Source of the DNA: Saccostrea echinata
Lineage: Eukaryota
DNA: 64,000 bases
Direction of reading: 5' to 3'
Assembly (NCBI RefSeq): GCF_033153115.1
Contig: NW_026889805.1
Location: 7,998,001-8,062,000 of the forward strand
Shown here: positions 31,242-32,975 of the stretch, piece after piece
Numbering within the stretch: position 1 is the first letter of the stretch
Layout: the number at the start of each line of letters is the position of its first letter
Position numbers and translations under genes: made by a program
The notes under the pieces: model-generated
Database searches by the model: none
Seen by the model: the letters and a program-made list of their open reading frames with translations, nothing else
What the model was told of the DNA's origin: nothing

Positions 31242-32975
31242 TAGCAATTCTCTGTAACCACTTAAACTTCTTTGCCACGCATGGTCACCGATTTTGATGA
31301 AACTTTGCCCATTATTACAACTTGACACCAGAAAGATATATCAAATAAAATTCCGTCGCTATGTGTCTTGGTTGCCATGGTAACAGCCAAAAAAGTTGGA
31401 AAAATTGAGATTTTCAGCTACTTTGAACCTTTACTAAGCCTTAAGAAAGACTAAGAATAACAAACAAACCACTCTCACAAAAACCTGACACCTTGTTGCC
31501 ACTTATGCTATAAAGAAACTATTTAGAATTTATCTCTAAGTAAGTGGTAACCATGGGTACATTTGGGATACATTTTAGATGCTGAAAAATGCAGAAAAAC
31601 GCTCAATATTCACTAATGATAGGTGTTAAATGATCAAACTCAATCAACAATCTAAGAAAAAACAATAAAAATATTTTACCTTAAGTAATTAGGTATTGGC
31701 AATATTATTCTAAAAATAACTTTTATGGTTGCCATGGTAACACAGTGTAACCATGCAAAATCTGTTGATAAGATTGGGTTAATGCTACGATCTTAAGGAA
31801 AAACAGTCAAATTCATGACTGGCACATCCTTAAGACCTTGCAACACCGACAACATAAGAAAAATTGGGATTAATTGTTTTTTTGCAGTGTAACCATGGAA
31901 ACAACGTACCAGTTGTTTGAATTGATATTTTTTGCTGCTTTAGGAATTTACTTACCTTTTAATCAAGAAACATATTATTTGACTCACCTTGAATACTATT
32001 TATCTGGTAGAACTAAAGTTGAATATCATATATTGATAAAGTTTGTTGAAAAATACAACACTGTTGCTATGGTTACCAAGAAGGGAAAATGCTCGTTTTT
32101 GTTAATTTTATATCAACATTAAATCCTATGTGCCAGCTTTTTGCATCCAGTTAGAGATTGGGTGGTAGTCAAAATTGAAAGTCAGGTTAGTTGTTTATAA
32201 ATATCAATCATAAAAGGTTTGGGAATCTACATACAAGGGTACGTATCCAAGGAAACAGAATATTTTTCAGATTTTTCTGCATATTTTTTCTGCTAATTTC
32301 CATAGCAACGCTCTATTTAAAGAATTGAATTTGAATTTTTTGAAATGTGAAAATTAGGGTCACACCAACGCCTTTATAAATTGATCATCAGTTATATAGA
32401 AATATGCTTTTTAAAAAGATAGGATAAGATTAAAACACCAAGAGAGTAAATTTAAAATCCCATTGTGGTATTAAAACCATGGCAACTATTGCCAACCTAT
32501 AAGAAATATCATATTTCGTCCTTGGTATATGTTACAAGGATATCTCTTGTCCATTATATGCTTGCATTTCAACCTATAATTGTTTTTATTCTTAAGTGTA
32601 TGACTTTATAAAATTAAATGAACAAAATTATTACTTTTGAATACTTTGTTTCCATAGTAACGTATGTAATAGTTGATTTACTAAACATGTTTATCATGCA
32701 TTTAAGACATCAGGCCTTCAACTTTCAGAAACAGTCATCGCCACTTGTTTGCTTTGCTGCAAACATTAACTGTGGGACTCTGAACATGTTGAAAAATGCC
32801 ATTTTTCAAACTTTAGGACATGTTGCTATGGTGACAGTGACACGTAGAAACCAATTTTTGCCTGATTTGAGTTTACGTTATCAAAGACTTTTATCATAGA
32901 GAGTTTGGAGAAATTCTGAGACTATGCGTGCCACAGCTCCTAAATAAAAGTTAAAGTCATTACAGAGAATGGCTC
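31242..32975. mobile_element. Kolobok-type non-autonomous element carrying a phased X-box-like array
   Basis: TTAA TSD (31238-31241, 32976-32979). TIR TAGCAATTCTCTGTAA / TTACAGAGAATGGCTC. Interrupts the Naiad RT. Confidence 0.8.

Follow-up and report, generated by a model that had tools for sequence, protein, structure and literature searches.

The window, a stretch of 64,000 nucleotides from Saccostrea echinata, contains an element (family A) that, judged from its sequence, is a non-autonomous Sola3 DNA transposon. It carries ten palindromes (boxes) that are likely sites for dimers of host RFX proteins, spaced for one nucleosome and probably kept as an aid to mobility, a reading that we hold with middling confidence. 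The box ladder itself is real and looks selected. This work adds the Sola3 partners, the conservation of the boxes in the shape of a footprint, the quantised gaps, a module shared with Helentrons, and a rival reading in which the transposase takes the place of RFX. The element and its ends are located as follows (positions of the window).

31242..32975, plus strand: non-autonomous Sola3-type DNA transposon, family A, 1,734 bp
31238..31241, unstranded: left TTAA target-site duplication
32976..32979, unstranded: right TTAA target-site duplication
31242..31308, plus strand: 5' terminal/subterminal sequence, 85% match to autonomous Sola3 L152 over 67 bp including the TTAA
32911..32975, minus strand: 3' terminal/subterminal sequence, 83% match to L152 over 69 bp including the TTAA, tip GAG inward

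The longest stop-free frame of family A is 93 codons. Full-length copies were aligned for 66 of 73 loci, one of them found through the box-pair pattern, and the seven split, truncated or unmatched loci were dropped. TTAA flanks both sides in 63 of the 66 copies, the tips read TAG...CTC in 63 of the 66, and insert-free copies of the host repeat have a single (C/T)TAA at the insertion point. The tip pattern has 1,557 exact matches in the genome; as 81 of the first 100 are family A, roughly 600 copies are estimated. The 30 best copies are 93–99.7% alike.

The insertion host (~29880–30180 and 31150–33157) is a fragmented reverse-transcriptase element with 3,250 genome candidates, motifs that we take to be Penelope-like, and an inverted duplicate at 28857–29094. 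Paired tandem arrays of 30-bp and 10-bp units, with ends that are inverted in part (30199–30387 and 30869–31137), also interrupt this fragment and are probably another non-autonomous element. Elsewhere in the window, inverted arrays of 21-bp repeats at 4918–5430, 22540–22827 and 34017–35009 resemble foldback elements, and an open frame of 1,182 codons on the minus strand (49327–52872), with 13-residue Thr/Gln/Ser-rich repeats after a signal-like start, resembles a mucin exon.

The initial annotation described the element as Kolobok-type, a label that we replace because the partner transposase is Sola3 and the tips are not RR...YY. The tips of family A recur in L152/L153, a 12.7-kb element that encodes a spliced DDD transposase and carries one box 129 bp in from the 5' tip and two at 141 and 521 bp from the 3' tip. 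In L158 (12.2 kb) the tips read TAG and boxes lie at 131, 140 and 519. Tips related to those of family A define the further families B, C and D, and broken transposase pieces inside family C gave 38 and 84 genome matches. The partner transposase cores, compared by eye over 21 positions, match the published Sola3 RNase H consensus PkkyrEkqsdyfgkkgislhv, for example YREKQSDFFGQKGMSWHI (PMC5751038). Cores of other families are 33–64% identical to that of L152. The core of a transposase homologue has an integrase/mariner-like fold (Z 10.6, root mean square deviation 3.2, 141 aligned), and homologues occur in bivalves, a brachiopod, cnidarians, amphioxus, a crinoid, rotifers and nematodes. A PDB sequence search with the core returned nothing at E below 0.4, and four partner frames had no Pfam match below E 0.05.

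The tips lead to the same class. The Repbase rule, as given for non-autonomous elements, calls for target-site duplications of equal length and tips alike over positions 1–11 with at most one mismatch (PMC4455052). The right tip of family A is identical to that of L152, and its left tip is one position off L158 and two off L152. Bao et al. in 2009 reportedly defined Sola3 by a TTAA target and GAG...CTC tips. Both such tips are present in L138, L152, L162, L168, L154 and L174; the relative L197 has GAG at both ends, whereas family A differs in having TAG at the left tip. Kolobok elements share the TTAA duplication but are described with termini 5'-RR...YY-3' (PMC9587614). With tips that read TAG...CTC, one end of family A fails this pattern in either orientation. 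Kolobok was therefore rejected: the transposase found with these tips fits Sola3, and the tips read TA...TC. No family A-like tips were found in the 1.5-kb flanks of 20 of the 114 loci of PF20700, a transposase linked to Kolobok. Genes of this transposase on G000 contigs C29, C79, C122, C12 and C52 form long head-to-tail arrays with a period of ~3.6–4.0 kb that resemble described KolobokP multimers. Sola2 was also rejected: its published consensus, DfaenyqlvvqdevqskhW, was not seen, and the partners read DWAMKFLP..YRE.Q..W (PMC5751038).

The ladder was first described as a transposon-borne array, and this does not extend to the autonomous partners, which have only 0–4 boxes per arm. No autonomous element carrying the whole ladder was found in the genome. 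L164, an apparent exception, is a nested, deleted family A copy.

The ten boxes, and a weaker eleventh site, are placed as follows, all unstranded, with mismatches counted against the published X-box pattern.

31371..31384: X-box-like palindrome 1, 0 mismatches, 129 bp from the element tip
31547..31560: box 2, 2 mismatches
31728..31741: box 3, 0 mismatches
31747–31760: weaker eleventh site beside box 3
31889..31902: box 4, 1 mismatch
32063..32076: box 5, 0 mismatches
32243..32256: box 6, end of the left register, 2 mismatches
32296..32309: box 7, innermost of the right register, 2 mismatches
32473..32486: box 8, 2 mismatches
32648..32661: box 9, 1 mismatch
32822..32835: box 10, 0 mismatches, 140 bp from the element tip

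The letters, coordinates and spacings of the motifs (176, 181, 161, 174, 180, 53, 177, 175 and 174 bp) are exactly those reported in the initial annotation, and its two registers do start near the terminal inverted repeats, with box 1 and box 10 at the tip distances listed. Its identification of the motif as an RFX X-box also holds against the published dimer-bound consensus GTNRCC-N0-3-RGYAAC (bioRxiv 2022.11.11.515474), to which four boxes correspond exactly, two with one mismatch and four with two. Allowing up to two mismatches, the pattern gives nine sites, compared with a mean of 0.155 and a maximum of 2 in 200 dinucleotide shuffles. Eight of the nine gaps fall within 160–182 bp, which occurred in none of 1,000,000 random placements. 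The free DNA between neighboring boxes is 147–167 bp, and 39 bp at the central junction. An extra RFX-like half-site lies 16 bp outside the first box (31355–31363) and is also present in the terminal units of L152 and L158.

The gaps are nearly fixed across 30 copies of family A, at 176, 181, 167, 174, 180, 53, 177, 173 and 174 bp. The 161-bp gap between boxes 3 and 4 is private to the copy studied, with 167 bp in 27 of the 30, and the 53-bp junction between boxes 6 and 7 is unchanged in all 30. The claimed periodicity is thus borne out by the presence of the ladder in nearly all copies, but not as a single period, as the carriers differ (156, ~175 and ~190–200 bp).

The spacers are as dissimilar as had been claimed. 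In pairwise alignment no two of them align significantly (best z 3.2 of 44), the one exception being the inverted arms, where the 5' end of the element matches its 3' end in reverse complement (z 16.6). Tandem Repeats Finder detected no array across the ladder. Without such an array and without alignable head-to-tail monomers, an ordinary tandem satellite is rejected. Anchored on their boxes, the family A units have a column identity of 0.309, compared with 0.297 in shuffles (p 0.024), with a faint likeness 20–45 bp before the box (best 20-bp window, p 0.004); an arm-wise orientation of the units, rank 18 among 128 orientations, is unsupported. In family B, whose ends are related, the X-box units are still 70–77% alike, which shows that ladders do arise by duplication. 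The ladder of family A likely began in the same way, as duplications in long terminal arms. A derivation of its internal spacers from autonomous arms found no significant match in 176 comparisons (best z 3.6).

The spacing was then compared across 12 Sola3 families in which both tips were located by tip pairing or patterns (L138, L146, L152, L154, L158, L162, L166, L168, L174, L184, B and C). A box lies 124–160 bp inside the tip at 16 of the 24 ends, one of these boxes being weak. Tip-to-box distances are 128–144 bp at 14 of 16 ends measured. L154 and L174, with intact ends, lack a box in the outer 900 bp on both sides. Twenty-five gaps from 13 families besides A comprise 14 at 164–197 bp, eight at 374–417, two at 582–597 and one of 240 bp, so that 24 fall at one, two or three times a unit of 165–205 bp, a clustering reached in 0 of 20,000 trials under both null models. 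This clustering is only suggestive, since the gaps were hand-chosen (gaps of at least 795 bp and one weak family B site were left out), the families are related, and four of them lack an exactly located tip. Autonomous arms have a lattice of about 190–200 bp, compared with about 175 bp for family A.

These distances bear on an alternative in which the boxes are host RFX sites serving as a transcriptional or accessibility module, for instance in germ or ciliated cells, and the ~175-bp period is left over from tandem duplication, its fit to the nucleosome being unselected. The alike units of family B and the faint likeness among anchored family A units are what such a history would leave, and in oyster repeats in general monomers of 160–180 bp form the most frequent class (PMC7492417). 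However, the double and triple gaps persist where the spacers no longer align, the tip-to-box distances keep to a narrow range, and the element has no gene to express. We regard this alternative as improbable.

The argument for selection comes from the alignment of the 66 copies and from their relatives: the motif is far better kept than the spacers both within and between subfamilies. Parsimony on the 140 box columns gives 67 changes on terminal branches, compared with 148 expected from trinucleotide-matched columns (0.45), and 11 compared with 50 on internal branches (0.22). The total is 78 changes against about 199 expected, and none of 100,000 random block sets was as low. Only the 14 bp themselves show the dip, with a rate of 0.5–0.6 inside and 1.4–1.8 immediately adjacent. 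Between subfamilies, the relative L217, which is 68% identical to family A, keeps 50 of 56 box positions (89%) as opposed to 374 of 550 other columns (Fisher p 6e-4); two further copies of this relative agree, though they are not independent of it. Box conservation is also seen against L197 (p 0.047) and L196 (p 0.008), both found by the box-pair pattern, and L198, at 88% identity, shows no excess (p 0.44). With boxes far better kept than spacers and the ladder present in nearly all copies, the array does not behave as a decayed satellite. L217 belongs to a family E (L091 775–1100, L099, L217 and L218) that sits inside the 3' arm of family C copies and keeps four boxes with gaps of 164, 173 and 163 bp.

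A different account of the same depletion is that the boxes are unselected, with a bound protein or the palindromic structure lowering the local mutation rate, and that the ladder is what is left, without function, of a former tandem array. The depletion on terminal branches would be expected from it. So would the pattern among the changes themselves: those compatible with the consensus (22, 44 expected) are depleted like the incompatible ones (41, 96 expected), which is unlike the prediction for a loose RFX consensus and is what a lower mutation rate would give. By contrast, the stronger depletion on internal branches is what selection through transposition predicts. Subterminal sequence has a terminal deficit in the same direction (0.66–0.73 of the rest; in a second analysis only in long-branch copies), imperfect boxes stay imperfect and do not drift toward perfect palindromes, and a twofold lower rate would hardly keep the distances between boxes while the spacers become unalignable. 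A purely mutational origin is thus highly unlikely, and the boxes are best regarded as selected.

As to the protein that reads the box, the genome has 10 RFX-domain matches above the cut-off, six loci being clearly RFX by translation. Across eight families the tips, presumed to be the transposase sites, are 64% alike and the boxes 90%, a figure that is partly circular, with 32% over the 50 bp before the box. The constancy of the boxes, set beside the divergence of tips and transposase cores, agrees with a host reader that does not change. A box that is unaltered as the tips diverge, recurs in an unrelated superfamily and is lost from two Sola3 families points to a host factor.

The main rival to host RFX is the Sola3 transposase itself, for which the boxes would be subterminal sites bound through a helix-turn-helix that precedes the catalytic region. 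Many sites would then load more transposase on the non-autonomous element and help end pairing. In line with this, the box lies at a fixed tip distance in most Sola3 clades, and private changes are as depleted in box columns as in tips (3.2 per kb in each, 6.1 in the rest; 31 copies not chosen by tips). The Pfam profile RFX_DNA_binding weakly matches 3 of 43 transposase homologues (E 0.012–0.027, profile positions 19–50, below the cut-off), and a profile comparison of the transposase helix-turn-helix with the RFX domains of the genome gives P 65% and E 6e-5 over 37 columns. This alignment, however, covers only helices 2–3, and the RFX wing motif, which acts in base recognition, is replaced by an unrelated one. 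The fold is that of a generic helix-turn-helix (best Z 5.5, root mean square deviation 2.8, 61 aligned), with RFX5 at rank 21 of the comparison (Z 4.0, 4.0 and 58, respectively). The same segment is present in the box-less families L154 and L174, and both the drift of the Sola3 tips around a fixed box and the recurrence of the box in Helentron repeats are at odds with a transposase site. For the helix-turn-helix region, a PDB sequence search returned nothing at E below 0.4, and Foldseek found no match to the small domain at E 0.001. A transposase-like frame, L267 (G000:C33:16670410–16670556), which by eye is not an RFX gene, scores above the Pfam RFX domain cut-off, suggesting that an RFX-like helix pair is common in Sola-type transposases. 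Taken together, the transposase is an unlikely reader, and host RFX is preferred.

The recurrence outside Sola3 was found in the window itself, together with a second motif.

31290..31307, plus strand: companion motif that begins 81 bp ahead of box 1 and also occurs in Helentron (HINE) monomers
23305..23779, plus strand: decayed Helentron-type HINE tandem array with four X-box-like sites, gaps of 162, 156 and 143 bp, companion motif present

The array is part of an element (~23050–23980) with a GTCT microsatellite, ~156-bp repeats, and a 3' subTIR with hairpin at ~23945–23980. Its family has a 5' subTIR and microsatellite in 14 of 16 loci and a 3' subTIR and hairpin in 9 of 16, the anatomy of Cg_HINE being tandem repeats, subTIRs, a microsatellite and a 3' hairpin (PMC7492417). 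In the HINE monomer the companion motif lies 82 bp before the box, and a matrix derived from it finds its best site 78–86 bp before the box at 14 of 26 Sola3 ends (chance 8% each), the site at 31290–31307 among them, though of the 10 family A units just 2 have the motif as their best site. A search of the genome with the two-motif pattern gave 5,367 exact matches, compared with 0 for a control. Most of these are supplied by the HINE family of the array, and the first 100 comprise 85 of Helentron type and 15 of Sola3 type. Helentrons use a different enzyme from Sola3. Apart from the two motifs, no homology between HINE monomer and Sola3 unit was supported (z at most 3.8). In 58 HINE monomers the raw variation of the boxes is 0.115, against a comparison value of 0.152. 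In the Sola3 form, the near-palindromic center of the companion motif lies 73–74 bp, or the length of half a nucleosome, from the edge of the box. Sola3 and Helentron elements could share one chromatin module, in which a putative RFX site and a nucleosome-centered companion 81–82 bp away set a lattice from each end, place the cut site at a nucleosome edge and turn thousands of repeats into an RFX sink and a chromatin scaffold driven by a host factor; we consider this possible but doubtful.

For family A, the arrangement suggests how the boxes may act. With RFX on the first box, the terminal nucleosome would be held in a set position, which would leave the cut site near the nucleosome edge and within reach of a transposase supplied in trans. 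Further boxes would extend the nucleosome order inward from both ends until the registers meet at the central junction. The element would thereby borrow a host protein to arrange the chromatin at its ends, and copies with intact boxes would move more often, so that the boxes are kept. The ladder likely expanded through ancient duplications of a unit in the terminal arm, and hardly anything of that unit except the box is left.

Several observations qualify the nucleosome part of this mechanism. The HINE arrays, with their 156-bp period, have only 142 bp free, below nucleosome length. AA/TT autocorrelation in the element peaks at 10.0 bp, as in 0 of 100 shuffles, yet 2.9% of 418 tiles reach or surpass it. 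The signal is phased to the boxes: for the best of five periods tried, 2 of 300 random anchor sets did as well. The 10-bp periodicity is absent from relative L197 and family B. At human RFX5 sites, nucleosome order is reported to depend largely on nearby CTCF (PMC4809547), and RFX5 is described as binding on the nucleosome at SHL+2 and not in the linker (PMC12311785). A placement of RFX in the linker is therefore not established by these accounts.

If RFX binds, thousands of genomic sites would be competitors of the ciliary promoters and would influence chromatin, and there would be a testable cause for the monomer length of 160–180 bp that bivalve repeats favor. With its identified autonomous partners, family A is also a compact substrate for work on the Sola3 transposase, which has been little studied. 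Host proteins that aid transposons are already known; the literature searched gave no description of a strongly conserved RFX-type ladder with nucleosome-scale spacing or of one two-motif unit in two unrelated superfamilies, although supplements or Repbase reports could hold one.

Compared with known systems, family A is like Sola3 in its TTAA duplication, its GAG...CTC-type tips and its partners with a spliced DDD transposase, and unlike it in being non-coding, in its left TAG tip, and in its ten-box ladder with companion motif. The likeness to Kolobok, as that superfamily is described, is limited to the TTAA duplication. The CENP-B box is a conserved protein-binding box that recurs at a nucleosome-scale period in diverging alpha satellite, a centromeric tandem array whose reader is a domesticated transposase. 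Family A differs from this system in being a dispersed element with RFX as the probable reader. The boxes resemble the RFX X-box of ciliary promoters, a 14-bp imperfect palindrome given as GTNRCC-N2-RGYAAC (bioRxiv 2022.11.11.515474), but here form ten regularly spaced candidate sites in a gene-less mobile element. Cg_HINE, like family A, is a non-autonomous element built of nucleosome-length units, and one HINE family of this genome carries the box and companion motif of family A. By contrast, Cg_HINE is described with alignable repeats, subTIRs, a microsatellite and a hairpin (PMC7492417), whereas family A has terminal inverted repeats, a TTAA duplication and spacers that no longer align.
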